64,000 bases of DNA from Dehalococcoidia bacterium (GCA_965220625.1 CBDCQN010000001.1:156930-220929), one strand, 5' to 3'; shown: positions 17,457 to 61,282, numbered from the stretch's first letter. The notes: generated from the letters alone by a model not told the origin. A program made the numbers and translations.

Positions 17457-18107
17457 GTGGCCACTCAGAGCTTGAAACCGCGACAGGGTTCGACGCAGAC
17501 ACTGCCGGAGCCTTATGGTCCCATCGTACTTCGGCTAGCCCCCGCCGTGCGGATAACCAGCGAACAGTTGGAAGAGATCTGTGCGCTGAACCGTGATATT
17601 CGCATAGAGCGCAACGCCGAAGGAGATTTGGAGCTGATGCCCCCTACCCTCCCAGTTACCGGGAACCAGGACGCCAACATTACTGCCGATTTGGCTCATT
17701 GGGCGAGGGCAGACGGCAGGGGCGTAGCCTTCAGCTCTGCAGCAGGTTTCACGCTGCCCAATGGAGCGCTGCGTTCCCCCGACGCCTCGTGGATCCTCAA
17801 GTCCCGCCTGACGGAATTGACCGCCGAAGAGAAGCGCGGGTTTTCTCGTATTTGCCCCGACTTCGTTATCGAATTGCGCTCCAGTTCCGATAGACTGAGC
17901 GTGCTGCGCCGCAAGATGGAAGAGTACATGGAAAACGGAGCGCGGCTGGGCTGGCTGATAGACCCGCTTGACCCTCTGCGCCGAGTGTACGTCTACCGTC
18001 CCGGCGCCGAAGTCGAGATACTGGAGCGTCCGGAAACCCTTTCCGGAGAGCCGGAGTTGCCGGGCTTCAAGCTGGACCTGAAACCCGTCTGGGAGCCGGC
18101 TTTCTGA
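17457..18107 (+). CDS. Uma2-family (DUF820) putative endonuclease
   Basis: 216 aa. PD-ExK-like CPDFVIELRSSSD and the C-terminal LPGFKLDL motif typical of Uma2. Confidence 0.75.
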   Translation: MATQSLKPRQGSTQTLPEPYGPIVLRLAPAVRITSEQLEEICALNRDIRIERNAEGDLELMPPTLPVTGNQDANITADLAHWARADGRGVAFSSAAGFTLPNGALRSPDASWILKSRLTELTAEEKRGFSRICPDFVIELRSSSDRLSVLRRKMEEYMENGARLGWLIDPLDPLRRVYVYRPGAEVEILERPETLSGEPELPGFKLDLKPVWEPAF

Positions 18108-18155
18108 CTAACGCTCAGGCCGGCTCCCGCGAAAACCAGATGCCGAGGCGCAACT

Positions 18156-19169
18156 ATGACCACTGCACAGAAGACGAATTTCCTGGAATATGACCGGACC
18201 ATGGGCATGACGGTCATGGAGGGCCGCGGCTTTTATTACCCCGTGGATACCGCGGTGGGCAAGGACGACCGTCTCTACGTGATCAGCCGCAGCAAAGAGG
18301 AGACGACACGCGGCATTCGCGTCACCATGTGCGACGTGGACAGCGGCTATTTCGGCAACTTCGGCGCCTACGGCTACGCAGGCGGGCAGTTCGTCTGGCC
18401 CGCCTGCGGGGCGGTCGACAACCGGGGCCGGTTCTTCATCAGCGATGAGAAGCTCAACCGGGTCACAGCCTACGACGATACCGGCAACTACCTGTTCCAT
18501 TGGGGCGAGTCAGGCTCCGGCCCAGGAGAATTGGATACCCCGTCTGGCTTGGCGTTCGATAGGGAGAACAATATCTACGTCGCCGATACATACAACAACC
18601 GGGTGCAAAAATTCACCGCCGACGGCCGCTTCCTGCTTGCCATCGGCGAACACGGAAGCGAAGGCGTCAGCCTTCCTTGGGGACTGGCCACGGATACCCG
18701 GAACAACGTGTACGCCGCCGACTTCGGCAACGACTGTATCAAGAAATATTCCTCCCAAGGTGAATTCCTGGCTGCGTTCGGCTCATCGGGCCGCGGCGAC
18801 GGCGAGTTCACCCGCCCGGCCTCAGTGGCGGTGGACCATGACGGCTACATCTACGTAGCCGACTGGGGCAACGAACGGGTGCAGGTGTTGGACTCCGAGG
18901 GCAATTTCGTGACGAAACTGCGGGGCGAGGCGACACTGTCTCAATGGGCGTCCAACTTCCTTAGCATCAACGTAGAGGAAGCCGCCGCCCGGGGCACTGC
19001 CGACCTCGACATGGAAATCGATTACGTCGTCGACGACCCACACGAAGAATCGTCCCACATAGAGAAATACTTCTGGTGCCCGGTTTCGGTTAAACTGGAC
19101 AGCCAAGGCCGTCTGTACGTGACCGAGACCAACCGGCACCGGCTCCAGGTATACCGTAGGAGCGGGTGA
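18156..19169 (+). CDS. NHL-repeat beta-propeller protein
   Basis: 337 aa with six repeats ending in YVADxxNxRVQxF-type strands (DTYNNRVQKF, DFGNDCIKKY, DWGNERVQVL, ETNRHRLQVY). Confidence 0.8.
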   Translation: MTTAQKTNFLEYDRTMGMTVMEGRGFYYPVDTAVGKDDRLYVISRSKEETTRGIRVTMCDVDSGYFGNFGAYGYAGGQFVWPACGAVDNRGRFFISDEKLNRVTAYDDTGNYLFHWGESGSGPGELDTPSGLAFDRENNIYVADTYNNRVQKFTADGRFLLAIGEHGSEGVSLPWGLATDTRNNVYAADFGNDCIKKYSSQGEFLAAFGSSGRGDGEFTRPASVAVDHDGYIYVADWGNERVQVLDSEGNFVTKLRGEATLSQWASNFLSINVEEAAARGTADLDMEIDYVVDDPHEESSHIEKYFWCPVSVKLDSQGRLYVTETNRHRLQVYRRSG

Positions 19170-22806: not shown

Positions 22807-23538
22807 ATGACCCACGCGAAACTGGCCCACGACCCCCAGGCGGCCATTGACTACGAAAGCCTGTCCTTCAACCCCGATGAACCGGAGCCGCTGCCGGACG
22901 CCATGTTTCAATACCCTGTCTTCGAAGAAATCCTCCACCTCCTGGGCACCCACCTGACCGACCTGTACTCGCCCGAAGAGGTGTTCCGCAGCAGCAACAC
23001 CTTCATCTGCTACGACCCAACCGACCTGAACGTCCGGGTCGGTCCCGACTACTACTTCGCCTTCGGCGTAGACGCCCAGGCGATCGAGCAGGCCAAGCTC
23101 TACCTCCCTTGGGTTGTGGGCAAGCCCCCTGATTTCGTGTTGGAAATCGCCTCGGAAAGCACGGCGAAGAATGACGTGACCAACAAACGCCGGCTCTACG
23201 CTGACATCGGCGTCCCCGAATACTGGCGCTTCGACCGCACCGGGGGAGACTTCTACGGGGCGCCTCTGGCCGGAGACATTCTCGCAAACGGCGTCTACCA
23301 GCCCGTGGACCTGACCACGGAGCCAGATGGTATCCTCAAGGGAAACAGCCCGGCGTTGAGACGAAGCCTGTGCTGGGCGGACCGGATGCTGACGTTCTAC
23401 AACCCGGAGACCAACCAATATATGCGAAACCTGAGAGCCGAGCGGGCGCGGGCCGACGCGGAACGAACTGCCAAAGAAGCGGCGGAATCGCAGTTAGAAG
23501 CGCTGGGCGCCGAGTTGCGTCGGCTGCGGGGTGAATGA
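22807..23538 (+). CDS. Uma2-family putative endonuclease, long subtype with C-terminal coiled-coil tail
   Basis: Paralogue of 60482-61282, sharing EPEPLP, NTFICYD, LNVRVGPD, GKPPDFVLEIASEST and VPEYWRFD. The C-terminus is AERARADAERTAKEAAESQLEALGAELRRLRGE. Start set at ATG 22807; the ORF track start is 22654. Confidence 0.75.
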   Translation: MTHAKLAHDPQAAIDYESLSFNPDEPEPLPDAMFQYPVFEEILHLLGTHLTDLYSPEEVFRSSNTFICYDPTDLNVRVGPDYYFAFGVDAQAIEQAKLYLPWVVGKPPDFVLEIASESTAKNDVTNKRRLYADIGVPEYWRFDRTGGDFYGAPLAGDILANGVYQPVDLTTEPDGILKGNSPALRRSLCWADRMLTFYNPETNQYMRNLRAERARADAERTAKEAAESQLEALGAELRRLRGE

Positions 23539-23593: not shown

Positions 23594-23626
23594 AAACGCC
23601 GGTGAACGTCACCGGCGTTTTCTTTT
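23594..23626 (+). terminator. Rho-independent terminator after Uma2 gene
   Basis: AAACGCCGGTGA-ACG-TCACCGGCGTTT, a perfect 12 bp stem followed by a TCTTTTG tract. Confidence 0.7.
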
Positions 23627-23647
23627 GCCAGCCCAAGCCCCCATTGA

Positions 23648-25336
23648 GATTGCCCAATCCTTCTTACCTCATGGAGTCGACCGGGTATCAGTGCGGGAAC
23701 ATCAGGATTCGCAGTACCGGCTACTCCGGCCCCGGTAGCTCAGCCCAAAATTACACGGGTGAGCATGGTCAACACCGTCCCCCTCAACGAGAGTAACCGC
23801 ATCTGGGTCGGCGGCTGGCCCAACCTCGTGCAGAACGACCCTTACGGCGAGACCCTGATCGAAAACCACGAGATCACGTCCGAGCCGGTCCCGGCCTTGG
23901 CCAACAGCTGGGTAGTCGACGCCGGGTTCAACACTTGGACTTTCCAATTGAACGAAGGCATTCCCTGGCATTTCGGCTACGGCGAATTCACTGCGGCCGA
24001 CGTGGCTCACACCTGGATGTTGGTTTCTCAAGAGGAAAGCAACAGCACCTTCAAGTCAATTTGGACGACTACCTACCCCGAGGTACACGACGACTACAGC
24101 ATCTCCTTTCATTTCGAAAACCCTCAGTTGACCGGAGGGCGGCTTTTCTCCCGGCTTCAAGGCGATCTCGTAATCCAGAGCAAAGCACAATGGGACGAAG
24201 CTGGCGGCGACCCGTCCGCGTATGACGATAGACCCACCGGTACTGGCTCCTACCAATACGGCGGCCGGGAATTGGCCGCCAGCGTTTGGTACGAAAAGAT
24301 CGACTACGACCACTGGGCCGGTGAAAACCCGGACTTTCAGGAACTGGAATGGATCTGGGCGGCCAAGCAGTTTACCCGCTTATCCATGTTGCTGGCTAGC
24401 GAGGTACAAGGCGCGGACCTGTCCCGAGAAGTACAGGTAGACGCCAAGGCCCGGGGGATGAAGGTCGTTTCGTCCAACAACGAAAACAACCAGTCCTACG
24501 GCTTCTTCGGAGGGACCTATCTAAGCACGGTCGACAGTAACCTGGAACCTTGGCCGGACGGCAACCACCCCCACTATTTGGGGGAAGAACCGTGGCACAA
24601 TCCCTTGGTGCGAGAGGCCTTTAACGTCGCGGTAGACCGTCAAGCCATCATCGACGAGGTATACTTCGGCAATGCCAGCTCGGTATACGTACCAGTGTTC
24701 GCTCCATTTACCGAGGGTTGGAGCGACCGTTGGGTGGACCAGTTCGACGATCAGTACGGCTACAACCCCGATCGCGCCGTCGAACTGCTGGCTGAGGCCG
24801 GCTACGGACCCGGAGACATCTCCATCGACATGTCCTCTACGGTAATTCCGGGCAACCCCGAGATCCCGCAATTGATCGAAATACTCTCCACCATGTGGGA
24901 GGCCGTAGGGGTCGACACCAACATCATAGACGTGGAGTTTGGCGCTTGGGCGGAAACTCTCTTCAACCATGACATTCACGAAACGTTCGTTATTCTTCGG
25001 AACACCCCCATCAGGACCACCCAGGAGGGTCTCCGTGTTTTCTGGGTATCCGCGCCCGACGGCTTGCTCTACGGGTGGGAGTCAGACTCCATCAACGAGC
25101 AGTACGATTGCTTGGAGCAATCATTGGACGTCGCGGAACGGGAGCAGTGCGCCCGCGACGCCGGCGACGAGATGTTCGATGATTTCCTGACGCTTCCGTT
25201 ATTCCAGACCACCTTCGACATGACCATAGACCCCGAATTCATCTCCGGATGGGTGTACCCTGGAGTCGGATCGGCCCACCCGACTCACGTTCACAACATA
25301 AAGGCCTGTCCGGTTGGCACGGAACGGTGCGACTAA
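23648..25336 (+). pseudogene. Family-5 substrate-binding protein, 5'-truncated (no signal peptide or lipobox)
   Basis: Paralogue of 40196-42298. Similarity to that gene (AVPAT...QPxIxRV...ESNRxWVGGW) continues upstream of the GTG 23759 start, as far as the in-frame stop at 23645-23647. The signal, lipobox and linker regions are absent. Confidence 0.5.
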
Positions 25337-25436: not shown

Positions 25437-25457
25437 CGATGCGCCTACGAAGATATA

Positions 25458-25505
25458 GCAGGAGCGGCAGGATTCGAACCCGCGACCACTGGTTTTGGAG
25501 ACCAG
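25458..25505 (-). repeat. 48 bp copy of the 3' half of tRNA-Trp (att-like direct repeat)
   Basis: Identical over 48 nt to 31387-31434, spanning the anticodon stem through the first C of CCA of the intact tRNA-Trp. Same orientation. Confidence 0.9.
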
Positions 25506-25951
25506 GTCTTGAGGAGTCCTGGGGGTATTTGGAGCTGTTTGGAGGTTGGCTTCGTAGCTAATTGTCGGCTCTCACTTGTCGTGAGCCTCATCTAGCCTCT
25601 TAGAAGATTGACATTTTGGGATGGCGAATTAGCCTGCAAGATACCTGCATCGTTTCATCGATACCATCAAGCAGGCGTCGGACACGGGCCGGGAGTTGCC
25701 GGTCGCCTGAGGCGGCATTTCCTCAAAAACCGGAAACACGCTGGCGACCAATACCCATAGGTGACCCGGTCTTTGCGTTAGGCTCGTAACATGCTACCGG
25801 CCTGGTTTACGCCACATTTTCGAGCAGGCCCCGTGCACTGAACTGGAGACTGGTCCGGCAGCCGAAATTTTAAGGCCCCGTTGGCTTTCTATTATCACCG
25901 GGTGATGAATAGAAGTGTCGGGGCCTTGATAGATTTGGCGGTACGGGGTTG

Positions 25952-26713
25952 TCAGGCTGTCGCGGTCGCCGGTTGATGGGTCTTCAGGAAACGCCGGGCG
26001 TGGGATACGACCTCGTCGATGTGCTCCTGCGAGTCCTTCCAAGGGAAAATGGTCACCTCGGAGTTAGGGGCGAGACTGGCAACCTCCATCGCGCACTCGT
26101 AAGGGTGCGCCGGCACATCGTCGGGCGCTATCAGCAGCGGTGTCTGCAGCGTACGCACGAAATCGCGGGAAACGGTGAAAACGAAGTCGGCGCGGTTGGT
26201 ATACATGCTGGTCAGGAAGTCATGGACCATGTCCATTGTAATTTCCGGACGCTTCTCGCAAAGGGGCGGCCCCCACCCGGCTGTATTGTTCTGGTAGAAA
26301 ATATCAGGAATCTCCGGCCTGAACCCGCTCGGTTGCATCAACGCCGCTGCCACAATGCGCTCCGGGGCCAGCCTCAGCAGGTTGTGGATCATCGGCCCGC
26401 CGATGCAGAAGCCCATGACCAGGAACTCCTTGAGGCCGAGGTGGTCCATCAGCCCGAGTTGGTCATCAGAGTAGGCATCCCACGGGCGGTCGATCTCCAG
26501 TGGGCCACTGGACTGGCCCAGATTGGCGTTGCGTAAGTCGGCGGCGATACAGCGGAAGTCGTTTTGGTAGGTCTCCATCGGGTTGAAGGGCACCGACGTG
26601 TTCAAGGATGCCACGGTGGAATTAAGCCCGCCACCCGGAATGATCAGCAGCGGGAATCCCGAACCGACCTCTTCATAGTAGATACGGTTGGGACCTCTTT
26701 CGTAGAACGGCAT
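25952..26713 (-). CDS. Alpha/beta-fold hydrolase
   Basis: 253 aa with GGAGG upstream. GFPLLIIPGGG near the N-terminus and a MGFCIGG nucleophile elbow variant. Confidence 0.7.
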   Translation of the reverse strand: MPFYERGPNRIYYEEVGSGFPLLIIPGGGLNSTVASLNTSVPFNPMETYQNDFRCIAADLRNANLGQSSGPLEIDRPWDAYSDDQLGLMDHLGLKEFLVMGFCIGGPMIHNLLRLAPERIVAAALMQPSGFRPEIPDIFYQNNTAGWGPPLCEKRPEITMDMVHDFLTSMYTNRADFVFTVSRDFVRTLQTPLLIAPDDVPAHPYECAMEVASLAPNSEVTIFPWKDSQEHIDEVVSHARRFLKTHQPATATA

Positions 26714-26923
26714 GACGATTTTCCTCCATCAGCGAATTGCAAGGCTAACTTGATGTCGAATGAGCGGGCAGGCCGGAATATTCGGCCCAAGTCTTGCCCC
26801 TGCTCGAGGGCGAGGCCGCCGGCAGGCTGGAAGTACCGGCGAACCGCCTACTACGTCAAAGCGGAGACTACGGCCGGGCCGGAGGGGTCATCGGCGTTGG
26901 TCATGTCGAATCTTTCCGCACTG

Positions 26924-29019: not shown

Positions 29020-29253
29020 GGTCAGCGGCCCCGATGCCCTGACCTGAGCCGGGCCGCTGCCGAAAGGCCCTGGCATGACCTGAGGTCCGTCGGCCCCAGG
29101 TCATGCTCGAAGCCGTTCACCCGGAAATGTTCGCCGTCTTGGCAACGGGCCGGATCCTGGTTTCCGTAGTTGCCTGTTCGCCGCTCGACGAACCCACGCC
29201 ACCTCTGCGCCTCCGGCTCCGTACCGTTCAGGGAACACTTGTCCTCTTCGCGC

Positions 29254-49672: not shown

Positions 49673-49720
49673 AGGAAAAATGCTGCATCTATCAGGCGAA
49701 ACTCGACACTGCCCTGCTTC

Positions 49721-50599
49721 TTAAGGTCCGTTCCAACCAGTGGGGTCAGCATACCGCCGAGTCAAGTGCCAATTGCCTCCGGCGAGTTCTATCAACCCCT
49801 GACGTCTCAGATTTACTTGAGCGCCCCTTACCCGGTGTTTCCATTCCCTGCCGAACCGTACGCCATTGATAACTCGGTCGATCCTATCATCACACAAATC
49901 AGGATGAATCATGCTGATAAGGGGATGGATATCCCTCGTCGCCAATGGCCCGTCTCTGAGAATGTAAACGATCGTCCGGGCGAAGATCGAGTTCGTACTT
50001 TCCCCTGGTTTGGCCCTAAGTAATCTCAGGGACTCTACCGTAACTTCCAATTGTTGTTCGAACTCGTCCTTGAATCTCTTTTGAGCCGAGTTTAACGCTT
50101 CCGAATATTTGGCCTTAAGCGATTCAGAAATCTCGGCCAGGCCGTCCAATTCATCGATTGAAACCTGGGTTCCAAGCCGCCCGTAGGCTACCAGGTCGCT
50201 AGCAATTCTTCGCACCGCAGCGGGATCGTCAACTTGAATGCCATATTCGTAATTCTGGAACAGGGAACTGCTCGTTAAATTCCCAGAGGTGACTATCGCG
50301 GTGTGTTCATCGGCGACGTAGGATTTTGCATGTAGACCCGGAAGGTGTCGTACAGTTATTTCGGGGAATTCTTTGCAAAATTTGGCGACCGCCTTAGTGT
50401 CCAGGGATCCTTGGAGCATACTGCCCGGTGCCAAATTAGTAAGAAGAACGACATGCGGGGGGGTTCTCCCCTGCAACAGAGAAGTGAACCGCAGCAATGG
50501 CTCCTCCGTAATGAACGGCGAAACAATAATGGCTCGCTGACGGACCGACCTCACAAAGCTATCAAACGTCTTCGCCCAGGGGGATCTGACGGTTTGCAT
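49721..50599 (-). CDS. PLD-family (single HKD motif) nuclease with C-terminal Mrr_N-like winged-helix domain
   Basis: HKD motif GLHAKSYVADEHTAIVTSGNLT. C-terminal ILRDGPLATRDI...WKHRVRGAQVNLRRQGLIELAGGNWHLT resembles the Mrr N-terminal wHTH. ATG 50599 lies 1 nt after the upstream stop; an alternative TTG start is at 50641. Confidence 0.65.
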   Translation of the reverse strand: MQTVRSPWAKTFDSFVRSVRQRAIIVSPFITEEPLLRFTSLLQGRTPPHVVLLTNLAPGSMLQGSLDTKAVAKFCKEFPEITVRHLPGLHAKSYVADEHTAIVTSGNLTSSSLFQNYEYGIQVDDPAAVRRIASDLVAYGRLGTQVSIDELDGLAEISESLKAKYSEALNSAQKRFKDEFEQQLEVTVESLRLLRAKPGESTNSIFARTIVYILRDGPLATRDIHPLISMIHPDLCDDRIDRVINGVRFGREWKHRVRGAQVNLRRQGLIELAGGNWHLTRRYADPTGWNGP

Positions 50600-50600
50600 A

Positions 50601-52025: not shown

Positions 52026-52179
52026 AACGTCCCGCTGGCGCTGAGGGTAGAACGTACCGCGTATTCATGCTGGTAATGTGGACATACTGGCACAAGCTGT
52101 CAACACCTGTTTGACAGCACACCACCAAGCCGCCGCTTGGCCATCAGCGATTGATGGACTCTGATAATTCTCTAATGGG

Positions 52180-53238
52180 CTACCCGTCCTCGCCGATCCG
52201 GGCCGAGGGCGAACGCGCCTCGGTCTCCTCTGAACCGGCGGCCCCCAGTGTGACAACCGCTATCGCGCCCGCGATATAGCCGGCGGCCATCAACGACAGC
52301 AGGCCTGCGGCGATTGCCGCTCGTATCTTTTCGCGGAACATGATCAGCACGAAGCCCACCAGCATCAGGCCTATGGCCATTCCGCCCGCGACGAAGTGCG
52401 CGGGCTCGGTCTGCAGCCCCAGGATGCCGCCACGGTAGAAGATGTCGGCATAAAACAGGATAGTAATGTTAAAAGCGCAGCTACCGTAGAGCCCGGCCAC
52501 CCCCAAGTCCATTGCCCCGATGCGGGCGGCGGCGATTGTGGAAGCCGCCTCTGGCATGGTGGTAACCAGCGACACCAACAGGATCCCCAGGGTGCTGGAC
52601 GCAACACCGGTAATGTCCGCGATCCGGTCTGTGCTCCACGCCAGGAAGAATCCGGCAACGACCACGCCGGCCGACACCAGGAGGAACAGGACCCAAGCCC
52701 GGCGCAGGGTCATTCCAGGGTCGTCGGAACCCTCGTCGTCGCTAGCCGGGCGGGTTGCGTAGACCCAATACATTCCGGCCAGGAACACGCCGAGGAGAAT
52801 GACGGACGACAGCCCGATTTGGAAGGCGCTCACCCCGAACTGGGTGGCCCCGAAGATCAGGGCAAGCCCCGTAAGCAGAGCTGCGACGACTATCAAATAG
52901 CCCTGCTGCGGCGCAACGCGCTGCAGGAAGCGCTTTCCCCCGAAGGCCAGAGCCACCGCCGCAAAGGTGAACATGTTCAACATGTTGGCGCCGAACACGT
53001 TGCCCACCGCCAGTTCGGGGTTGGGGGGGTCCAGTTGCACCGCCGATATGTTGGTGGCCAGTTCCGGCAACGACGTGGCCAAGGCAATCAGGATGCTCCC
53101 CACGAACAACCGCCCCCAGCCGGTGAGCGTGGCCAGAGCGTCGCCGTAGACCGCCAGCCGCGTGCCAAAGAATATGACGGCAGCGGCGCTGCCAAGGAAA
53201 ACAAGGATGGCAATGGAGAGGCTGGTGAGTTCTGCCAT
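52180..53238 (-). CDS. Ca2+/cation antiporter (CaCA, Na+/Ca2+ exchanger-type) membrane protein
   Basis: 352 aa polytopic protein. Two alpha-repeat signatures (SLPELATN...GNVFGANMLN and TMPEAAST...GSCAFN). Confidence 0.8.
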   Translation of the reverse strand: MAELTSLSIAILVFLGSAAAVIFFGTRLAVYGDALATLTGWGRLFVGSILIALATSLPELATNISAVQLDPPNPELAVGNVFGANMLNMFTFAAVALAFGGKRFLQRVAPQQGYLIVVAALLTGLALIFGATQFGVSAFQIGLSSVILLGVFLAGMYWVYATRPASDDEGSDDPGMTLRRAWVLFLLVSAGVVVAGFFLAWSTDRIADITGVASSTLGILLVSLVTTMPEAASTIAAARIGAMDLGVAGLYGSCAFNITILFYADIFYRGGILGLQTEPAHFVAGGMAIGLMLVGFVLIMFREKIRAAIAAGLLSLMAAGYIAGAIAVVTLGAAGSEETEARSPSARIGEDG

Positions 53239-53298
53239 CGTCGACTAAACCACGGCGCGGGCCATTGAAGAGATTCTGAAAACTCTGCGCTTCTGCGG

Positions 53299-54402
53299 TT
53301 AGTCTGCGCCGGTTTCGATGGCGGCGACTATCCGGTCGCCCATTTCGACGGTCCCGACGCTTTCCGCGCCGGCAACGCTGATGTCGGCGGTCCGGACGTT
53401 CTGGCCCAGGACCTGCTCGACCGCTCGTTCCACGGCCGCGGCCTCTTCGGTCAGGCCAAGGGAATAGCGCACCATCATAGCCGCGCTGAGTATGGAGCCT
53501 ATGGGGTTGGCGATACCCTGGCCCGCTATGTCGGGAGCGGTGCCGTGGATCGGCTCATACATTCCCTTGGAACGCTGCCCGGCAGTCGGAACACCGGACA
53601 GGCTGGCAGAGGGCAACACGCCCATGGACGCAGCCAGCACCGAGGCCTCGTCGGTCAGTATGTCGCCGAAGGTGTTTTCAGCCACGATGACGTCAAAGCG
53701 CGACGGCCGTTGGATTAGCTGCATCGCACAGGCGTCCACGAGCACATGTTCCAGCTCGACGTCGGGGTATTCCTCACCCAAACGGACGGCGATGGACCTC
53801 CAGAGCCGGGAGCACTCGAGAACGTTGGCCTTGTCCACCGAAGTGAGCTTGTAACGCCGGCCCCGTGCCAATTCGAACCCGATCCGCAGGACCCGCTCGA
53901 TCTCCCCTTCGGTGTACCTCATGGTGTCTTCCGCGATCATCCCGTTGGGAGTCTCCCGGCGTCCCCTGGGCTCGGCGTAGTAAAGCCCTCCCGTCAGTTC
54001 CCGGACGACAACCAAATCGACGTCCCGCACCACCTCCGGCTTGAGGACGCTGGACTCGATGAGCCAAGGATAGACCTTGACCGGCCGTATGTTGGCGAAC
54101 ACGCCCATGTGGGCCCGGATGGCCAACAGCCCCTGCTCCGGACGCACCGTCGCGCCGGGGTCATCCCACTTGGGGCCGCCAACCGCGCCGAAAAGAACAG
54201 CGTCGGCGGCATCGGTCATGGCGCGGACCTCTTCGGTGAACGGCACGCCGTGGTTGTCGATGGAAATGCCGCCGATGTCCCCGTAAGCGAGGTTGAAGCG
54301 GTGGCCGAAGCCACGGCCCACGGCTTCCAAAACGCGAACACCCTGATCGGTAACTTCCGGCCCGATGCCGTCCCCGCTCAAAACCGCGATGTCGAAGTCC
54401 AC
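53299..54402 (-). CDS. leuB: 3-isopropylmalate dehydrogenase
   Basis: 367 aa. LSGDGIGPEV, GAVGGPKWD, LYYAEPRG and NTFGDILTDEAS motifs. Confidence 0.9.
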   Translation of the reverse strand: MDFDIAVLSGDGIGPEVTDQGVRVLEAVGRGFGHRFNLAYGDIGGISIDNHGVPFTEEVRAMTDAADAVLFGAVGGPKWDDPGATVRPEQGLLAIRAHMGVFANIRPVKVYPWLIESSVLKPEVVRDVDLVVVRELTGGLYYAEPRGRRETPNGMIAEDTMRYTEGEIERVLRIGFELARGRRYKLTSVDKANVLECSRLWRSIAVRLGEEYPDVELEHVLVDACAMQLIQRPSRFDVIVAENTFGDILTDEASVLAASMGVLPSASLSGVPTAGQRSKGMYEPIHGTAPDIAGQGIANPIGSILSAAMMVRYSLGLTEEAAAVERAVEQVLGQNVRTADISVAGAESVGTVEMGDRIVAAIETGAD

Positions 54403-54520
54403 GCGTTCCTCCCGGATTCCGTGGTGTGGCCGGATCCCGTGGTGTGGAATGAACCGCCACAGTATACACCACGTTAAAGTACAGAGAACTCAAAGGCAGG
54501 TCCCGCGCAGGGTCTTTCAA

Positions 54521-54560
54521 TTCTCCCTCTCCCTCGAGGGAGAGGGTTGGGGCGAGGGTG
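54521..54560. repeat. REP-like hairpin element (CCTCTCCCTCGAGGGAGAGG...GGCGAGGGTG)
   Basis: Palindromic core CCCTCTCCCTCGAGGGAGAGGG. Related to 17386-17422. Confidence 0.65.
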
Positions 54561-54598
54561 AAATGCTGGCAATAACGATGGTCGCTCACGTTAGGGAA

Positions 54599-54637
54599 CG
54601 CCCCCACCCTAACCCTCCCCCAAATGGGGGAGGGGAC
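54599..54637. repeat. REP-like hairpin element, second copy of 38728-38766 type
   Basis: CGCCCCCACCCTAACCCTCCCCCAAATGGGGGAGGGGAC. Confidence 0.7.
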
Positions 54638-54713
54638 AATTAAATGACCCTGGGTCCCGCGTGTTAGCCTGCGTGTTAGAATGTTGCCCACCGGGGACAA
54701 ACACGGAGCGGAC

Positions 54714-55301
54714 ATGCAACGAGAGACAGTCGCCAAACGCCGGTTTATGACCGCTGAAGAGTTTCTGCTGATGCCGGAGGAGGATGGCAAACGGTATGAA
54801 CTCATTCACGGGGTACTCAGCGAGAAAGTAGGGCCGGGAGAGGGAATGGCTCCAGGACACATCCACGCCATCGTAGTAAGCCGGTTCGCTATGGCTATTT
54901 CTGTTTATTCTGACGAAAACAATACCGGGCAAACCTGCACCGGCGAGCCTGGCTACCGGCTGGCAAACGGCCCGGACATTGTGCGCGCGCCGGACGTGGC
55001 CTGGATTGCGCCTGGACGGGTGCCGGAAGGAACGCGGGGCTACCCCCAACTTGCCCCCGACCTGGTAGTCGAGGTGAAGTCGCCCAGCAATTCGTACGCG
55101 TCCTTGGCGGACAAGGCGGCGATGTGGCTAAGTCATGGTTCGCGAGCGGTCTGGGTGGGCGACCCGGACCACACCGACGTTACCGTATACCGGCCCGGCG
55201 CCTCGCCGATACTGCTGGGTGAGGATGACGTGTTGGACGGTGGAGACGTGCTTCCCGGCTTCAGCATCCCAGTGTGGCGCCTCTTTCGCCGGCAGCACTA
55301 G
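54714..55301 (+). CDS. Uma2-family putative endonuclease
   Basis: RYELIHGVL, PDVAWIAPGRVPEG and PDLVVEVKSPSN (PD-ExK), with LPGFSIPV at the C-terminus. Start set at ATG 54714. Confidence 0.8.
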   Translation: MQRETVAKRRFMTAEEFLLMPEEDGKRYELIHGVLSEKVGPGEGMAPGHIHAIVVSRFAMAISVYSDENNTGQTCTGEPGYRLANGPDIVRAPDVAWIAPGRVPEGTRGYPQLAPDLVVEVKSPSNSYASLADKAAMWLSHGSRAVWVGDPDHTDVTVYRPGASPILLGEDDVLDGGDVLPGFSIPVWRLFRRQH

Positions 55302-55420
55302 TACTCAGTCAACCGCGGAATCGGAAGGGTCTGGAAGCGAAGGGTCGGACCGATGGCCTTGGACCGTCCCTCCGCAAGTCGGTTTGGGTAATTGTTATTT
55401 GGCGGTTGACTGAGTACTAG
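55298..55420. repeat. Perfect 19 bp inverted repeat with 85 nt spacer, overlapping the Uma2 stop codon
   Basis: CTAGTACTCAGTCAACCGC at 55298-55316 and GCGGTTGACTGAGTACTAG at 55402-55420. Confidence 0.85.
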
Positions 55421-55471
55421 GGGCGGACCGGCACTGGCAAGCCCACCCGGCGTTAAGGCGGCAGACACAGG

Positions 55472-55616
55472 CCTCCCGGCGTCGCTTGGGCTCGGCGCAA
55501 TATAGCCCTCCCGCCAGTTCCCGGACGACAGCCGAATCGACATCCCGCACCACCTCCGGCTTGAGGACTCTGGACTCGATGAGCCAGGGATAAACCCTGA
55601 CCGGACGGATGTTGGC
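55472..55616 (-). pseudogene. 145 bp internal fragment of a leuB-like gene
   Basis: Gap-free hand alignment to leuB 53952-54096 gives 17 mismatches in 145 nt. Same orientation. No start, stop or flanking leuB sequence. Confidence 0.75.
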
Positions 55617-55681
55617 CCGCGCCGGGCGGAGGAGAGTACTGCCAGATGCTACAATAACCTCATATTCCCGGATGGCAGGAC

Positions 55682-56236
55682 ATGACGACTACAAGAGTAT
55701 TGTTGACCGCCGAGGACCTGCTGGCCCTTCCGCGGGATGGCAACAGGTACGAGCTCATCAGGGGAGTATTGGTCGGTAGGATGGGCACCGGAGACCCGCA
55801 CGCCATTACGGTGACCAGAACCGCTGGCCTCGTCTTCAACTATACCGAAGCCAACGACTACGGAGCGGTCCGCTCTGGCGAACCGGGTTACCATCTGGAC
55901 TTCGAGCCGGACACGGTGCGTTGCCCGGATGTGGCCTGGGTTGCTCCGGGCCGTGTGCCGGAGGGAACGCGGGGCTACCCCGAACTGGCCCCCGACCTGG
56001 CGATTGAGGTCAAGTCGCCCAGCAATTCCAACCCGGAGATGGCCGCCAAGGCGTGGATGTGGCTCAGCTACGGCTCGCGCCAAGTATGGATTGCCGACAC
56101 GGAGCGCCTGACTGTCACGGTCTACCGCCACGGTGTCGAACCGCTGACCCTCGGCGAGGACGACCTGATAGACGGGGGTGAGTTGCTGCCCGGCTTCTCC
56201 TGCCCCGTTTGGCAGTTCTTCCGCCGGCATCGGTAG
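55682..56236 (+). CDS. Uma2-family putative endonuclease (tandem paralogue)
   Basis: 184 aa. RYELIRGVL, PDVAWVAPGRVPEG, PDLAIEVKSPSN and LPGFSCPV. Roughly 60 percent identical by eye to 54714-55301. Confidence 0.8.
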   Translation: MTTTRVLLTAEDLLALPRDGNRYELIRGVLVGRMGTGDPHAITVTRTAGLVFNYTEANDYGAVRSGEPGYHLDFEPDTVRCPDVAWVAPGRVPEGTRGYPELAPDLAIEVKSPSNSNPEMAAKAWMWLSYGSRQVWIADTERLTVTVYRHGVEPLTLGEDDLIDGGELLPGFSCPVWQFFRRHR

Positions 56237-56261
56237 CCGGGGTCGTGCCGGGTAGGAGCCA

Positions 56262-57689
56262 ATGACATTCGCCCAATTCATCGCCGCCGTGCAGGCTGGT
56301 CTAGGCGAGGAGAACGTTGTCGTTCACCCCGATGACCTGCTGGTGTTCGAGTACGACGGTTCCATCGACCGAGGAATGCCTTCGGCGGTGGTGTTCCCGG
56401 CCAACACGTCCGATGTGAGCCGGGTTATGGCTTTGGCCTACGAGGCTGGCATCCCCGTTGTGGGGCGCGGTTCCGGCACGGGCCTCAGCGGCGGAGCCAT
56501 CTCACCGCCCGGCGGCGTTCAGATCGCCTTCACTCGAATGCAGGAGGTCCTGGAAGTCGACACCGAAAACCGCCACGCCGTGGTGGAGCCGGGCGTCGTC
56601 AACCTCGACCTCGATACCCACGTCCGCAAGTTCGGCTTCCGGTACGCTCCCGACCCGTCCAGCCAGCGGGCCTGCAGCCTGGGAGGCAACATCGCCGAAA
56701 ACGCCGGCGGCCCCCACTGCCTGGCCTACGGCACCACCACAAACCACGTGCTGGGCATGGAGGTCGTATTGGAGGACGGCTCGGTGGTCCACTTGGGCAG
56801 CATGGCCCGGGAGACCCCCGGCTACGACCTGAGGGGAGTATTCGTCGGCTCCGAAGGGACCTTCGGCATTGCCACCCGCATCGCCGTGCGGCTGCTGCCG
56901 GTCCCTGAGTCCGTCAAGACTTACCTGGGCATCTTCCCCGACGTCGATTCGGCCTGCACCGCCGTATCGGCGGTCATAGGCCACGGCATCATACCCGCCG
57001 CATTGGAAATGCTGGACGCCCTGAGCATCCAGGCCGTCCAGAACGTTACCGACGTGGGCTACCCCGACGACGCCGGCGCGGTGTTGCTAATCGAGCTCGA
57101 AGGGCTGGATGACGAAGTAAACGAGACCGGCCGCGACGTGGAGGCCGCCCTCTGGGACACCGGCGCCAGCGAAGTGCGGGCCGCCGAACAGGCTGAGGAG
57201 CGGGAGCAGCTCTGGGCTGGCCGGAAGGGGGCGTTGGGAGCGTTGGGCAGCCTGGCCCCCAATTACTACCTGGTGGATGGCGTGGTGCCCCGCACCCAGT
57301 TGGCTCCGGTGCTGCGCCGGGTCGCCGAGGTGGGGCGCAAATACGATATTCCCATCGCCAACGTCTTCCACGCCGGAGACGGCAACCTTCACCCCTGCCT
57401 CCTGTTCGACGAGCGCCAGCCCGGGGCGCTGGAGACCATCATGGAAGCCGGCGCCGAGGTCTTGGAGGTCTGCGTCGAAGCAGGCGGGACCCTGACCGGC
57501 GAACACGGCGTGGGTCTGGAGAAGAAGGAGCAGATGCCCTTGGTCTTCTCGCCGGAGGACATGGCGGCCATGCGGCTGGTGCGCGACGCCTTCGCCCCCG
57601 AAAACCGCATCAACCCAGGCAAGATTTTCCCGGACGGCCATCGCCACGCCCCAGCCGCCCATCGGCCGGCTCTCGGAATGTACGCCTGA
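56262..57689 (+). CDS. glcD: Glycolate oxidase subunit GlcD (FAD-linked oxidase)
   Basis: 475 aa. FAD_binding_4 region (VVGRGSGTGLSGGA) and a C-terminal FAD-oxidase domain (GTLTGEHGVGLEK). Followed by glcE- and glcF-like genes. Confidence 0.8.
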   Translation: MTFAQFIAAVQAGLGEENVVVHPDDLLVFEYDGSIDRGMPSAVVFPANTSDVSRVMALAYEAGIPVVGRGSGTGLSGGAISPPGGVQIAFTRMQEVLEVDTENRHAVVEPGVVNLDLDTHVRKFGFRYAPDPSSQRACSLGGNIAENAGGPHCLAYGTTTNHVLGMEVVLEDGSVVHLGSMARETPGYDLRGVFVGSEGTFGIATRIAVRLLPVPESVKTYLGIFPDVDSACTAVSAVIGHGIIPAALEMLDALSIQAVQNVTDVGYPDDAGAVLLIELEGLDDEVNETGRDVEAALWDTGASEVRAAEQAEEREQLWAGRKGALGALGSLAPNYYLVDGVVPRTQLAPVLRRVAEVGRKYDIPIANVFHAGDGNLHPCLLFDERQPGALETIMEAGAEVLEVCVEAGGTLTGEHGVGLEKKEQMPLVFSPEDMAAMRLVRDAFAPENRINPGKIFPDGHRHAPAAHRPALGMYA

Positions 57690-57750
57690 GATTCGGATAG
57701 TCATCCTGGATAGAGGAACCCTTACTTTCGCCTCCCAGCGGTGTTCTTCG

Positions 57751-59112
57751 TTGCAAACCCGATTCAGCGACCAATTGGCCGACCTGGTTGGCCTCGATGC
57801 TATAGCGCCGGACAGCGAACGGTCCCTTTACGCCATCGACGGGGTCACGCCGCAGGCAGTAGTCCGCCCGGCTGGCCGCGCCGGGCTGGCCGGCTTGCTG
57901 CGTCAGGCTTCGGCCGAGGGGCTGGCCGTGTTTCCACGGGGCGGAGGCACCCAGATGGCTTTGGGGAACCGCCCCGATCGCGTGGACTTGATAGTCGATC
58001 TTACCAGGATGCGCCGGGTGCTGGACTACCAACCAGCCGACATGACCGTGACCGTGGAATCGGGCATTACCTTGACCGCCCTTCAGGAGGAACTGGCATC
58101 GGCGGGCAAGTACGTGCCGCTGGAAGCGCCCTTCCCAAGACGGGCGACCGTCGGCGGTATCCTGTCCACCGCCTCGAGCGGGCCATTGGCCCACGCCTAC
58201 GGCCCGCCGCGAGACTGGCTTATCGGCATCGGCGTATTGAGCGCCGACGGCGTCGAGACCAAGGCCGGCGGCAAGGTGGTGAAGAACGTTACCGGCTACG
58301 ATTTGAACAAGCTCTACACCGGAGCGCTGGGCACTTTGGGGGTAATAGTCGAAGCGACGTTGAAGGTCGCTCCGCTGCAACCGGAGTCCGGCGCACTCGT
58401 TGGATATTTCCCGAGCCTGGACGCGGCAATAAAGGCTGGAACCGGTCTTCTGGACCTGCCCGCCGCCCCGATGGCCTACGTCGCCACCTGCCCTCAACGG
58501 GGGCGGCCCATCTACCGATTGGGCCATGAGTCCTCCGAGCTAGCGTATTTCGCTAGCCGCTTCCAACCCGGCACGGATGCCATTGCCGCCGGCTTTGCTT
58601 TCTACTCAGGCCGCGCTCAAGCCGCCAAACGCCGCATCGACGACTCCACCGCCTTCTTGAAGCAGGCTGGGGCCGTCGACGTGTCCTTAATGGACAGCGG
58701 CCAAGCCGATGCGGTCCGGCAATGGCTTACCGATATGGCATGGGACCCGGAATCACCCCCAACATTGGCTATGAAGATCGCCGCGCCGCGCCGCTCGATA
58801 GCGCGGTTGGCTGCGGCCTGCCTCGACATCGACGGCGCGGCGGTGGTGGCCGACCCCGGTTTCGGCGCGTTGAGATTGCTCTGGTGGAACGGGCCCGGCG
58901 GCGAATCCCTTCTGGCGTGCATACGGTCGGCCAGGGACGCGGCCCGCGCTCACGGCGGCACGGCCGTGGTGGAGCAATTGGCCGCGCCCCTCAAGGACGG
59001 CATCGACGTCTGGGGAGAGGAGCCCGACAGCATCGGCGTCATGCGCCGCATAAAACAGCAGTTCGATCCGGCGGGCCTGCTGAACCACGGCAGGTTCATA
59101 GGAGGTCTTTAG
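57751..59112 (+). CDS. glcE: Glycolate oxidase FAD-binding subunit GlcE-like
   Basis: 453 aa with a TTG start. FAD-binding PCMH-type region (VFPRGGGTQMALG, GGKVVKNVTGYDL). Longer than typical GlcE. Confidence 0.7.
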   Translation: MQTRFSDQLADLVGLDAIAPDSERSLYAIDGVTPQAVVRPAGRAGLAGLLRQASAEGLAVFPRGGGTQMALGNRPDRVDLIVDLTRMRRVLDYQPADMTVTVESGITLTALQEELASAGKYVPLEAPFPRRATVGGILSTASSGPLAHAYGPPRDWLIGIGVLSADGVETKAGGKVVKNVTGYDLNKLYTGALGTLGVIVEATLKVAPLQPESGALVGYFPSLDAAIKAGTGLLDLPAAPMAYVATCPQRGRPIYRLGHESSELAYFASRFQPGTDAIAAGFAFYSGRAQAAKRRIDDSTAFLKQAGAVDVSLMDSGQADAVRQWLTDMAWDPESPPTLAMKIAAPRRSIARLAAACLDIDGAAVVADPGFGALRLLWWNGPGGESLLACIRSARDAARAHGGTAVVEQLAAPLKDGIDVWGEEPDSIGVMRRIKQQFDPAGLLNHGRFIGGL

Positions 59113-60485
59113 TGGCCGGGCCTGATGATCACTCAACAGAAACCACGTTCGCGCCGCTGCCCCTGCTGGCAGGGTTCCAGGGTCCCGACGCCCCGGCGGA
59201 AGCCGACATGTACCGGTGTGTGCATTGCGGCCTGTGCCTGAGTTCCTGCCCGACCTACGTGGAGACCCGGATGGAGATGGAGTCGCCCCGCGGGCGCATC
59301 GCCCTGATGAAGGCAGTTAATGAGGGCCGCGTCGAGATAACCCCAAGGATCGTGTCCCACTGGGAGGCCTGCCTCCAATGCCGCGCCTGCGAGGCCGTTT
59401 GCCCGTCGGGCGTGCCCTACGGCCGCATGATGGAACACACCCGCGCCCAGGTGCGGGCCCACAACCGGCAATCGGCCGGACTCCGCAGAGTCAGCCGCCT
59501 GTTCCTGCGGGGCGCCCTGCTCCATCCCGGACGGCTCAGGTTCGGGGCGCGGCTCGTCCGCCTGTACCAGCGCTCCGGCGTCCAGTGGCTCTTGCGGCGC
59601 TCCCGTTTGCTACGGTTGCTCCCCGGAGGGCTGGCTGGGCTTGAATCCCAGTTGCCTCCGCTGAGCGGCCGCTTCTTCGGCCCTTCCGCGACCGTGTTCC
59701 CGGCCCAAGAGCCCAAGCGAATGACCGTGGCGTTGCTCTCCGGATGCGTCATGCCATTGATGCAGGGGCCCACCATGGAGGCGGCGGTGCGGGTGCTCGC
59801 CCGCAACGGCTGCGACGTGGCCGTGCCGATGGGACAGGGCTGTTGCGGCGCTCTCAACATGCACGCCGGCGATCTGGAAGGAGGCCGGGAAATGGCCCGC
59901 CGCAACATAGACGCGCTGCTGACGGCCGGTGTCGACCGCATCGTCACCGCCTCCGCCGGTTGCGGCTCCGCCATGAAGGAATACAACGACCTGTTGCGGG
60001 ATGACCCCGAATACCGGGCCAAGGCAGAGCGGTTCAGCGAACTCACGGTGGATATCACGGAGCTGCTGGCCAGCCTGCCCCTCCGGCCGCCCTCGCGGCC
60101 CCTGACCCGCCGGGTCACCTACCAAGACCCTTGCCACCTGGCCCATGCCCAGCGCATCACCCGAGCCCCCCGTACGGTCCTCAAAGCGATACCCGGGGTG
60201 GAGTTGGTGGAAATGGAAAATTCCAGCCGGTGCTGCGGCGGAGCCGGCATATACTCGATGGTACAGCCGGACCTTTCGGGAAGGCTGCTGCGCCGGAAGC
60301 TGGGATATATCGCCGACGCGGACGCGGACGAGGTGGCAACAGCCAACCCTGGTTGTACGCTGCAGTTGGAACAGGGCTTGCGGCAGCAGGGAAGCCCCTG
60401 CCGGGTGCGCCACGTAGTGGACCTTCTGGACGAGGCCTACCGGCTGGAGGGCCCAGCAGGGCCGAGAGGGCGTTTTACGGACTAA
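59112..60485 (+). CDS. glcF: Glycolate oxidase iron-sulfur subunit GlcF
   Basis: Two ferredoxin-type clusters (CVHCGLCLSSCP, CLQCRACEAVCP) plus two CCG domains. GTG 59112 overlaps the glcE TAG and has GGAGG 6 nt upstream. The ORF-track 5' extension from 58722 was rejected. Confidence 0.8.
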   Translation: MAGPDDHSTETTFAPLPLLAGFQGPDAPAEADMYRCVHCGLCLSSCPTYVETRMEMESPRGRIALMKAVNEGRVEITPRIVSHWEACLQCRACEAVCPSGVPYGRMMEHTRAQVRAHNRQSAGLRRVSRLFLRGALLHPGRLRFGARLVRLYQRSGVQWLLRRSRLLRLLPGGLAGLESQLPPLSGRFFGPSATVFPAQEPKRMTVALLSGCVMPLMQGPTMEAAVRVLARNGCDVAVPMGQGCCGALNMHAGDLEGGREMARRNIDALLTAGVDRIVTASAGCGSAMKEYNDLLRDDPEYRAKAERFSELTVDITELLASLPLRPPSRPLTRRVTYQDPCHLAHAQRITRAPRTVLKAIPGVELVEMENSSRCCGGAGIYSMVQPDLSGRLLRRKLGYIADADADEVATANPGCTLQLEQGLRQQGSPCRVRHVVDLLDEAYRLEGPAGPRGRFTD

Positions 60486-61282
60486 TCACCGCCACGCTGG
60501 CGGCGCAATTCTTCCTCAAGCCAGCGCACCCTGGCCTCTGCGGCCGCGCGGGCGGCTTCGGCCGCTTCTCGTGCCCCTTCGGCCAATTCTCGTGCCCCTT
60601 CGGCGGCTTCTCGTGCCCCTTCGGCGATTGCCAGGTCGGCTCGTATCTCCGGGTAGTTGCGAAGGTATTCCCCGGTGTCCGGGTCGTACAGGTACAGCCG
60701 CTGGTCGTTCCAACCTAGGCTGAGGCCCAGCGCCGGGCTGAAACCCTTGAGTACGCCGTCGGGCGCCGTCGTCAATTCAATGGGCTGGTATTCGCCCTCC
60801 ACCAGTCGCTCCCCGACCAGCGGACTGCCGTATAGCTCACCGCCGGTGGGGTCGTACCGCCAATATTCCGGCACGCCGACTTCGACGTAGATGCCCCGCT
60901 TCCGCCCGACGTCGTGCCGGGCGGTGGACGCGGATGCGACTTCCAACGCCAGGTCCGGCGGCTTGCCCGCTTCCCAAGGAAGGTAGAGCGCCCGTTCGCG
61001 GATGGCGCGGGCATCTACGCCGGTTGCGATGTAGAAGTCGGGGCCGACCCGGACGTTCAGGTTGCGGCGGTCGTAACAGATGAAGGTGTTGCTGTCGAGA
61101 AACACGTCCCGGCGGCCCTCATAGTGAGCGACCAGAATCGGGATGAAGTCGAACAGATATGGATTTTGAATCATGCCTTCCGGCAGCGGTTCGGGTTCAT
61201 ATGGGTCGAATTCAAGGCTGGCAAAGTCAATCTCGCCCTGCCGGTTGTAGGTCAGCATTTTGTGGGGTAGCTTCGTAGCCAT
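60482..61282 (-). CDS. Uma2-family putative endonuclease, long subtype with repeat-containing coiled-coil tail
   Basis: 266 aa paralogue of 22807-23538. C-terminal AEGAREAAEGARELAEGAREAAEAARAAAEARVRWLEEELRRQ. Its stop codon overlaps the glcF stop. Confidence 0.75.
   Translation of the reverse strand: MATKLPHKMLTYNRQGEIDFASLEFDPYEPEPLPEGMIQNPYLFDFIPILVAHYEGRRDVFLDSNTFICYDRRNLNVRVGPDFYIATGVDARAIRERALYLPWEAGKPPDLALEVASASTARHDVGRKRGIYVEVGVPEYWRYDPTGGELYGSPLVGERLVEGEYQPIELTTAPDGVLKGFSPALGLSLGWNDQRLYLYDPDTGEYLRNYPEIRADLAIAEGAREAAEGARELAEGAREAAEAARAAAEARVRWLEEELRRQRGGD
60566..60628. repeat. 3 x 21 bp tandem repeat (TTCTCGTGCCCCTTCGGCNNN) coding heptads AEGAREx
   Basis: Units at 60566-60586, 60587-60607 and 60608-60628 differ only in the last 3 nt. 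Confidence 0.9.

Follow-up and report, generated by a model that had tools for sequence, protein, structure and literature searches.

Five genes of the Uma2 (DUF820) family, referred to as U1 to U5 in the order of their position, lie in the window, a stretch of 64,000 nt from an uncultured Dehalococcoidia (Chloroflexota). Comparison with related genomes makes it probable that these genes are functional, self-contained cassettes residing in the spacers between conserved genes, and that they are turned over by recombination within the population rather than by transposition of their own. Clean pairs of filled and empty sites are seen at the DUF1800|NHL, leuB|glcD and glcF|AGT junctions, and at DUF1501|pentapeptide when L085 is compared with L087. 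The comparison set consists of 95 related loci, designated by numbers with the prefix L, which include 80 loci centred on glcD and ten related DUF1800 loci and amount to 1.88 Mb of sampled DNA. The window's GlcD is 98-99% identical to that of two Dehalococcoidia metagenome-assembled genomes, positions 43299-60342 are matched at 99.98% by an ENA contig with a coverage of about 7x, and in the DUF1800 region the DNA of L082 and L083 is about 95% identical to the window.

All five proteins exceed the curated gathering cut-off of Pfam Uma2 (PF05685, 27 bits), with bit scores of 130, 48.2, 97.4, 94.5, and 52.1 and E-values of 8e-38, 1e-12, 8e-28, 7e-27, and 7e-14 for U1 to U5, respectively. A hidden Markov model (HMM) built from the family finds exactly five matches in the window, at the positions where a first-pass annotation of the sequence had placed them. 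The two subtypes described in that annotation are also recovered. The short subtype (184-216 aa) comprises U1 (17457-18107), U3 (54714-55301), and U4 (55682-56236), all on the plus strand; the long subtype (243-266 aa) comprises U2 (22807-23538, plus strand, with an alternative start at 22828 in a frame that is open from 22654) and U5 (60482-61282, minus strand). Amino acid identity is 56% between U3 and U4, about 50% between U2 and U5, and 36% between U1 and U3, whereas short and long proteins can be aligned over only about 37 residues around the catalytic core. The catalytic motif is complete in all five, with the arrangement PD...EVK...K (PD-EXK-K) in U3 and U4 and PD...ELR...K (PD-EXR-K) in U1. 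The long proteins have the PD-EXX-K arrangement known from COG4636, where the lysine has migrated to the following helix, and P81, D82, E114, and K128 (U5 numbering) are invariant in an alignment of 42 long-type sequences.

The AlphaFold2 (AF2) model of U5, with a mean predicted local distance difference test (pLDDT) score of 89.7, displays a PD-(D/E)XK core to which a beta extension and a single C-terminal helix of 56 residues (210-265) are added, so that the coiled-coil tail attributed earlier to the long subtype is real. This helix is encoded with 21-nt tandem repeats (60549-60625), and the length of the tail differs among alleles. The best Foldseek matches of the model are 9y1l, 6okh, 3ot2, and 1wdj (E-values between 1e-6 and 5e-5), which are the four solved Uma2/DUF820 proteins, and the U3 sequence matches the same entries. 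U5 is thus predicted to adopt the same restriction-endonuclease-like fold as these four proteins. No NCBIfam model matches the Uma2 genes, and PADLOC returns weak matches to the candidate defence family PDC-S03 (E-values between 1e-5 and 1e-10). The neighbouring genes are metabolic; no small partner or antitoxin open reading frame (ORF) of the kind expected in a type II toxin-antitoxin pair is conserved beside the Uma2 genes, and no methylase adjoins them. We infer that the five proteins would be solitary PD-EXX-K DNA nucleases of a selfish or defence type.

The replacement of one cassette by another is observed at the glc locus, whose gene order NaCa-leuB(-)-glcD-glcE-glcF-AGT(-)-SDR(-) is conserved in the 80 loci, AGT being the glyoxylate aminotransferase gene and SDR a short-chain dehydrogenase/reductase gene. 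Uma2 genes occupy gaps of this locus in the window's clade and in a few other genomes only. The glcF|AGT gap is empty (20-250 bp) in many relatives, for example L004, L021, L031, L036, and L037, while the window, L092, and L093 share one long-type U5 allele (94% identical). A different allele, with 61-68% amino acid identity to the first and 65% to U5 itself, is present in L002 and L003 in a background where AGT, GlcF, and GlcD are 96-99% and the flanking DNA 96% identical to those of the window. Synonymous divergence (dS) reaches 1.09 when the two alleles are compared, but 0.15 in the flanks. The swapped block extends over 60452-61556, from 34 nt before the glcF stop codon to 23 nt inside the 3' end of AGT; it is about 75% identical or unalignable to L002 and L003, and inside AGT the raised divergence tapers off within about 150 nt. 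Homology of glcF to L002 and L003 stops at 60451, and the altered plus-strand 3' end of the gene (60452-60485) carries an extension of about 10 codons into the U5 stop, ending in LEGPAGPRGRFTD before the stop codon where L002 and L003 end in LEG. The overlap of the glcF and U5 stop codons noted in the first-pass annotation (cTAa, 60482-60485) is therefore a product of the allele swap.

On the other side of U5, the minus-strand upstream spacer (61283-61556) belongs to the swapped block and is unalignable with L002 and L003, while it is 81-93% identical to L092. A gene relic of about 40 codons had been proposed within it at 61359-61478. This fragment could not be confirmed as a gene relic. It lacks a start codon, searches of 96 records and of NCBIfam returned no homologue, and L092, with a DNA identity of about 90%, differs in 8 of 43 codons by substitutions that look non-coding. 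In the databases, the proteins most similar to U5 (94% and 73% identical) are all encoded at glcF|AGT. The same gap holds a short-type Uma2 gene, 56-59% identical to U3, in L043, L048, and L066, and in L045 it holds a decayed short-type gene of which only the last 31 codons are left.

At the leuB|glcD junction, two alternative alleles seem to have been stacked. The gap is empty (170-280 bp) in about 25 relatives. L092 and L093 have the order leuB-U3-53 bp-glcD, with U3 as the sole Uma2 gene (94.6% DNA identity) and U4 absent, and the more distantly related L005 has leuB-U4-like-glcD; the U4 orthologues of L002, L003, and L005 are 94%, 93%, and 80% identical to that of the window. The window itself reads leuB, a 147 bp pair of repeats, U3, a miniature inverted-repeat transposable element (MITE), 52 nt of U3 spacer, leuB codons 150-103, 63 bp, U4, and glcD. 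The earlier observation that U3 and U4 flank a leuB relic is thus correct, the relic representing codons 103-150, but the MITE lying in between had been missed. The relic (55473-55616, minus strand, 144 bp) is truncated at both ends and is 90% identical in DNA and 83% in amino acids (tblastn) to the resident leuB (53299-54402). The spacer preceding it (55421-55472) is the native 3' spacer of U3, here called haplotype A: it is 96.7% identical to L092, where it runs on into glcD, and the identity reaches to 7 nt short of the L092 glcD start. In the window this spacer is joined to leuB codon 150 at 55472/55473. Beyond U4, the first ~150 nt of glcD (56262-56411, plus strand) form a patch that travels with U4, being 83% identical to L092 whereas the following 4 kb (glcD-glcF) are 93-100% identical.

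These junctions suggest that a U3 haplotype received, by recombination, a block from a U4 haplotype that extended from part of leuB through U4 to the 5' end of glcD. The crossover at glcD would have been homologous and that at the opposite end illegitimate, and a later deletion would have trimmed the duplicated leuB. The leuB relic is best read as a recombination scar left by the stacking of the alternative alleles U3 and U4, with the order of events as we infer it from the junctions. The relic is also found in L002, while it is absent from L003 and L092; its presence in L002 and its 90% identity to leuB indicate that the event predates these strains. For the same reasons (10% divergence and sharing with L002), a recent copy of the resident leuB was rejected as its origin. 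A simple tandem duplication as the origin of U3/U4 and of the relic was rejected as well, since U3 and U4 share 71% DNA identity against 90% for the relic and single-allele haplotypes exist. Another arrangement is seen in L003, where U3 is followed by a 75-nt copy of the U4/glcD junction, comprising 30 nt from the end of U4, the 22-nt spacer, and 23 nt from the start of glcD, so that U4 is bracketed there by direct repeats. This copy is evidence of recombination between paralogues.

Insertion elements account for other features of the same spacer. The segment 55299-55420 is an IS630-derived MITE, with 16-18 bp terminal inverted repeats (TIRs; TAGTACTCAGTCAACCGC) resembling the end of an IS630 element, a TA duplication, and an empty site. 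It is 118-122 bp long and sits in the CTAG of the U3 stop, the uninterrupted site CACTAGGGGCGG being present in L092. Its end is homologous to an IS630-family element of L002, the transposase of which matches NF033545 (7.7e-38). It shares with IS630-family MITEs the TIRs, the TA duplication in CTAG, the lack of an ORF, and the empty site in a sister strain; it differs in being a single copy in the 1.88 Mb sampled. Upstream of U3, a 147 bp insert (54508-54654) contains two inverted repeats resembling repetitive extragenic palindromes (REP-like); it is absent from L003 and L092, and its arms recur in many related loci. In L002, where leuB and U3 are no longer upstream, an IS701 and two IS630 copies lie at the same CTAG, indicating that the sole real synteny break at the glc locus is mediated by insertion sequences (IS). 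The breakpoint coincides with the IS701 end at CTAG, and Uma2 was rejected as the cause of this rearrangement. These three elements (two IS630-family and one IS701-family) occupy L002 5011-9153, directly upstream of the leuB relic, each with recognisable TIRs.

At the DUF1800 locus, U1 had been described as separating DUF1800 from its partner DUF1501. This is not the case: a gene for an NHL propeller stands between the two in 10 of 10 related loci, so that DUF1800-NHL-DUF1501 form a conserved triad, and U1 has been inserted cleanly in the DUF1800|NHL spacer, with all three neighbours intact. U1 is present in L082-84, L085, and L087, with identities (89% in L082, 74% in L085, 59% in L087) that rank as those of the flanks, and no copy is found in L086, L088, or L089-91, whose DUF1800|NHL gaps measure 9-52 bp. 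L086 and L004 belong to one chromosome, which is without Uma2 at all sites examined. L085 has an additional long-type Uma2 gene between DUF1501 and a pentapeptide gene that adjoin each other in L087. U2 is 92% identical to its L082 orthologue, and L086 and L089 lack it at this position.

U2 lies upstream of a gene for a solute-binding protein (SBP_bac_5; 23759-25336, plus strand) that is truncated at its 5' end. The truncation reported in the first-pass annotation is confirmed: the ORF that survives encodes 525 aa, while the L082 and L083 proteins have 633 aa, and the same truncation is present in a second assembly. At the deletion junction (23685-23710), the window has these few nucleotides in place of about 508 bp of L082 (14453-14962), a net loss of about 485 bp. 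The deleted DNA held an AT-rich promoter, the lipoprotein signal peptide MKNTRQVRSFPFIVLCVITSLLLVAVAC, and the Pro/Ala/Thr linker of the 633-aa protein. The junction is 147 bp past the U2 stop, beyond the U2 terminator, and U2 stands at the same place beside an intact SBP gene in L082 and L083. The surviving ORF has a ratio of nonsynonymous to synonymous substitution rates (dN/dS) of 0.17 relative to L082, which suggests that the deletion is recent. It is probably a recent, strain-specific event, and it has no demonstrable link to U2.

Several features identify the Uma2 genes as maintained, long-resident genes rather than debris. Orthologous Uma2 pairs have dN/dS values of 0.15-0.38 (0.20 for U1, 0.21 for U2, 0.33 for U3, and 0.28-0.38 for U4), compared with 0.06-0.19 for neighbouring core genes. 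Their G+C content at third codon positions (GC3) is 0.69-0.79, close to the 0.78-0.87 of core genes, and a recent foreign origin was rejected on this ground; the GC3 of an evidently foreign Mrr/PLD insert in the window is 0.55. Extended -10 boxes lie about 30-40 nt upstream of U3 (TGTTAGAAT), U4 (TGCTACAAT, at ~55647), and U5 (TGGTAATAT, 61307-61315), and that of U5 is kept in 4 of the 6 U5-type alleles compared and degenerate in L095. On the 3' side of U2, a hairpin followed by a T run (23595-23632, plus strand, AAACGCCGGTGAACGTCACCGGCGTTTTCTTTT) resembles an intrinsic terminator and is conserved in L082. The 1.88 Mb sampled contains 38 Uma2 ORFs, concentrated in the window's clade, which amounts to a lineage-specific expansion.

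The cassettes show no signs of a transposition machinery. A repeat search and alignments of the regions 130 nt upstream and 120 nt downstream of 23 Uma2 genes revealed no TIRs, target-site duplications (TSDs), or shared ends; what the alignments yielded were the promoter-like extended -10 boxes, and the conserved flanking motifs that the first-pass annotation had suggested looking for are limited to these boxes, with no element ends. Each cassette holds one ORF, and the TIRs, TSD, and transposase of an insertion sequence or transposon were not found with any of them. Nor were near-identical Uma2 copies seen at unrelated sites in the window and the sampled loci, the best pair of window paralogues being 56% identical. 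What was observed, as for homing endonuclease genes, is the presence or absence of a cassette at one conserved site among relatives, and the suggested synteny comparison did find empty sites for U1, for U3/U4, and for U5. The idea of selfish or mobile cassettes is accordingly upheld at the population level, by the filled and empty sites and the U5 replacement, and not as far as autonomous transposition is concerned.

A second proposal was that Uma2 genes promote local rearrangement, to be recognised by an association with breakpoints. Chained alignments, made to L082 over 8.2-33.5 kb of the window and to L003 over 44-63.5 kb, revealed 14 indels or replacements in about 45 kb, or about 1 per 3 kb, relative to these ~95%-identical strains. 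Four of these are no more than 150 bp away from a Uma2 gene where about 1.5 would be expected (10.7% of the sequence; binomial p≈0.055), and the excess is due to the glc locus alone. The enrichment is marginal, and it is confounded by the fact that indels are tolerated mainly in spacers. The remaining differences include a Type III restriction-modification (R-M) allele, the low-GC Mrr/PLD insert, and segments by tRNA-Trp. With the association marginal, the L002 break bounded by IS elements, and the SBP deletion later than U2 and strain-specific, a role of Uma2 in local rearrangement is not borne out. The earlier observations on the five loci are for the greater part correct.

Taken together, these observations favour a model in which homologous recombination within the ends of the flanking conserved genes would replace or remove cassettes, as exemplified by U5, while deeply diverged Uma2 alleles would be kept in the gene pool. 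Occasional illegitimate joins would stack alternative alleles in tandem, as in leuB-U3-glcD plus leuB-U4-glcD, with a truncated leuB as the scar. The same permissive spacers would gather IS630 MITEs, IS701/IS630 copies, and REP-like repeats, and these elements together with ordinary deletions would account for most of the damage in the neighbourhood. Several points weigh against this model. The dS of U1-U4 is the same as that of the flanking genes, so that vertical descent with occasional loss would suffice for them and no transfer is needed. The "empty" glcF|AGT gap of L004 keeps, at about 14044-14058, the sequence AAGCTGGTAAC, an 11-nt match to the U5-type promoter region AAGCTGGTAATAT, and L004 may therefore have lost a cassette by deletion. 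The divergent patches of about 150 nt beside U4 and U5 have a counterpart in SDR (62789-62987), far from any cassette. The comparison is confined to two genomic neighbourhoods (glc and DUF1800), and the ancestral state of each site was decided by parsimony. Finally, the literature reports no biochemical activity for any member of the Uma2 family.

If the Uma2 genes were ordinary long-resident paralogues and the scars beside them background variation of a very plastic genome, their association would be a coincidence. With a structural difference about every 3 kb, any gene has a better-than-even chance of one within 1 kb; U1-U4 are co-inherited with their flanks; and the Type III R-M genes, the Mrr/PLD insert, and the tRNA-Trp-flanked segment vary independently of Uma2. 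This account is nevertheless unlikely, as it leaves aside the dimorphism of U5 within one species-level clade (61-68% amino acid identity), the presence and absence of U4 among close strains, the occupation of the same gap by different subtypes, and the lineage-specific expansion, with the 38 ORFs concentrated in the window's clade. A homing-type process, in which the Uma2 nuclease would cut the cassette-free site and break repair would copy the cassette together with short flanking tracts, was already proposed for the family (PMC551604). It would agree with the tendency of related alleles to keep to one site across diverged genomes, with the patchy distribution and the degenerate remnant in L045, and with the restriction of divergent tracts to about 150 nt of the glcD 5', glcF 3', and AGT 3' ends beside swapped cassettes. 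It would also explain the scraps of flanking genes at tandem pairs, that is the leuB relic of the window and the 75-nt U4/glcD copy of L003, the latter being an ectopic copy that resembles break repair. However, the dS of U1-U4 does not differ from that of their flanks, unrelated short and long subtypes in the same gap would need convergent target specificity, the SDR patch is comparably divergent far from any cassette, any homologous allele swap places its crossovers in the flanks, and cleavage of the empty site is a prediction only. We regard homing as quite improbable on present evidence.

Least credible is the stronger form of the first-pass proposal, that the cassettes are autonomous mobile elements, or that cutting by the nuclease directly caused the nearby deletions, duplications, and truncations. 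The four differences close to Uma2 and the three different U3-U4 structures in strains with 98-99% identical GlcD would be in line with it. Against it stand the lack of TIRs, TSDs, and conserved cassette ends, the low identity of the window paralogues (at most 56%), the IS701 and IS630 boundaries of the L002 rearrangement with the window's IS630 MITE at the same CTAG, and the absence of the SBP deletion from L082 and L083 although U2 is present. Moreover, of the eight structural differences in the 8-33 kb segment, only one is near a Uma2 gene, and the p-value of about 0.055 comes from a confounded test, indels being tolerated only in spacers. Such a mechanism is thus very unlikely, and turnover of functional cassettes by recombination within the population is the reading that we prefer.

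Other variable elements were observed in and around the window. A REP-like palindromic repeat (CCCTCTCCCTC..GAGACGGTTACGGTGAGGG) lies in the DUF1800|U1 spacer at 17380-17425, and a motif scan gave 4 matches against 0.19 expected. Members of this REP-like family (CCCTCTCCCTC..GAGAGGGTTRGGGTGAGGG) occur in spacers of the window at 17380-17425, 38730-38748, and 54525-54640 and at many other loci, including the empty DUF1800|NHL spacer of L089 (8870-8915), so that Uma2-filled and empty spacers alike contain them. Positions 25453-25505 are a 53-nt, 96% identical copy of the 3' end of tRNA-Trp(cca), the gene for which lies 5.9 kb away at 31385-31462 on the minus strand. Between the two lie genes for an aldo-keto reductase, a polysaccharide deacetylase, and fn3 proteins as well as an a/b-hydrolase fragment, and L082, at 95% identity, lacks the segments 25498-26846 and 29027-31374. 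The repeat pair resembles an att-type duplication of the sort that integrated elements leave; no integrase was seen.

A Type III R-M pair occupies 11265-15545 (PADLOC MTase_III 3e-172, REase_III 3e-189). Its Mtase and Res proteins are 62% and 83% identical to those of L082 while the flanking genes are 95-98% identical, and in L086 and L089 a DUF433/DUF5615 pair is found in this neighbourhood instead. A 2.5 kb insert of low GC content (50-53%) at 49660-52178 carries PLD/DrmC-like and Mrr_cat-domain genes and is absent from L003, where the flanking genes abut. At 41834-42109, a 138-nt segment is tandemly duplicated with 99% identity inside a long minus-strand ORF (40196-42349). Finally, a protein of about 260 aa with a repeat-rich coiled coil and the C-terminal signature SDIVIxG...YVALEVS is encoded in L009 (11490-12278) and at 23 further related loci. 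In 19 relatives its gene occupies the glcD|glcE gap; the protein is also found in leuB|glcD and glcF|AGT gaps, and it has no relative in Pfam, PADLOC, NCBIfam, or the PDB; it may represent another family of gap-filling cassettes.

Uma2/DUF820 is a very large family, reaching up to 2% of the genes in one cyanobacterium, with four solved structures and a selfish hypothesis that is 20 years old. The close strains compared here constitute natural experiments, in which the same spacers are empty or filled, a species-level clade holds two deep alleles, and a stacked pair has left a datable scar. The pairs of filled and empty alleles provide concrete candidate substrates for biochemistry and make the homing model testable, and they show that ordinary recombination can suffice to turn cassettes over, no transposase being needed. 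If ordinary recombination is everything, the outcome is a tidy confirmation in a new phylum rather than a discovery.

Feder & Bujnicki (2005, PMC551604) identified the COG4636/Uma2 proteins as PD-(D/E)XK nucleases with a migrated lysine, in PD-EXX-K, PD-EXK-K, and PD-EXR-K variants. They described horizontal transfer, massive lineage-specific proliferation, "virtually random" insertion, and some tandem pairs, and they suggested that the genes are selfish, recombinogenic, and homing-like elements of a new type; the selfish or recombinogenic interpretation given in the first-pass annotation is therefore the standing hypothesis. Makarova et al. (2009, PMC2701414) considered the family a likely solo toxin forming cassettes of paralogues, and DUF820 genes are interspersed in a cyanobacterial hox operon (PMC4963859). 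Later literature notes expansions or the hox interspersion and reports no activity, and a literature search for Uma2 in connection with SAR202, defence islands, or PDC-S03 found nothing.

Among known systems, the free-standing homing genes seg and mob of T4-like phages, with their cycle of gain, decay, and loss, resemble the window's cassettes in being single nuclease genes between conserved genes, in their patchiness and remnants, and in the short divergent tracts in flanking genes. They differ in that Uma2 is mostly inherited vertically, that unrelated subtypes share a site, and that cleavage of the empty site is conjectural here; seg and mob are GIY-YIG and HNH proteins, respectively, whereas Uma2 belongs to another fold family. 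With solo toxin or defence genes (PMC2701414, PDC-S03, PMC4963859), the window has in common the lack of a partner, cassettes of paralogues, positions wedged in metabolic clusters, and deep allelic divergence. It differs from them in its weak PADLOC matches, in having no adjacent antitoxin or methylase, and in genes scattered singly instead of gathered in an island.

The known COG4636/Uma2 family (1WDJ, 3OT2, 6OKH, 9Y1L) shares with the window the Pfam match, the motif variants, and, on the U5 model, the fold, as well as lineage-specific proliferation, erratic context-free insertion, tandem pairs, and the selfish or recombinogenic interpretation. The host differs, being an uncultured marine-type Dehalococcoidia instead of cyanobacteria or Thermus, and the long subtype has two additions here, the beta extension and the helix of 56 residues. 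The present comparison furthermore documents, at the nucleotide level, sites with and without a cassette as well as the replacement and stacking of alleles. These data directly support the selfish-DNA proposal of 2005, and they do not describe a new kind of element. While the selfish idea itself dates from that proposal, the Chloroflexota host and the nucleotide-level evidence of cassette turnover are new.

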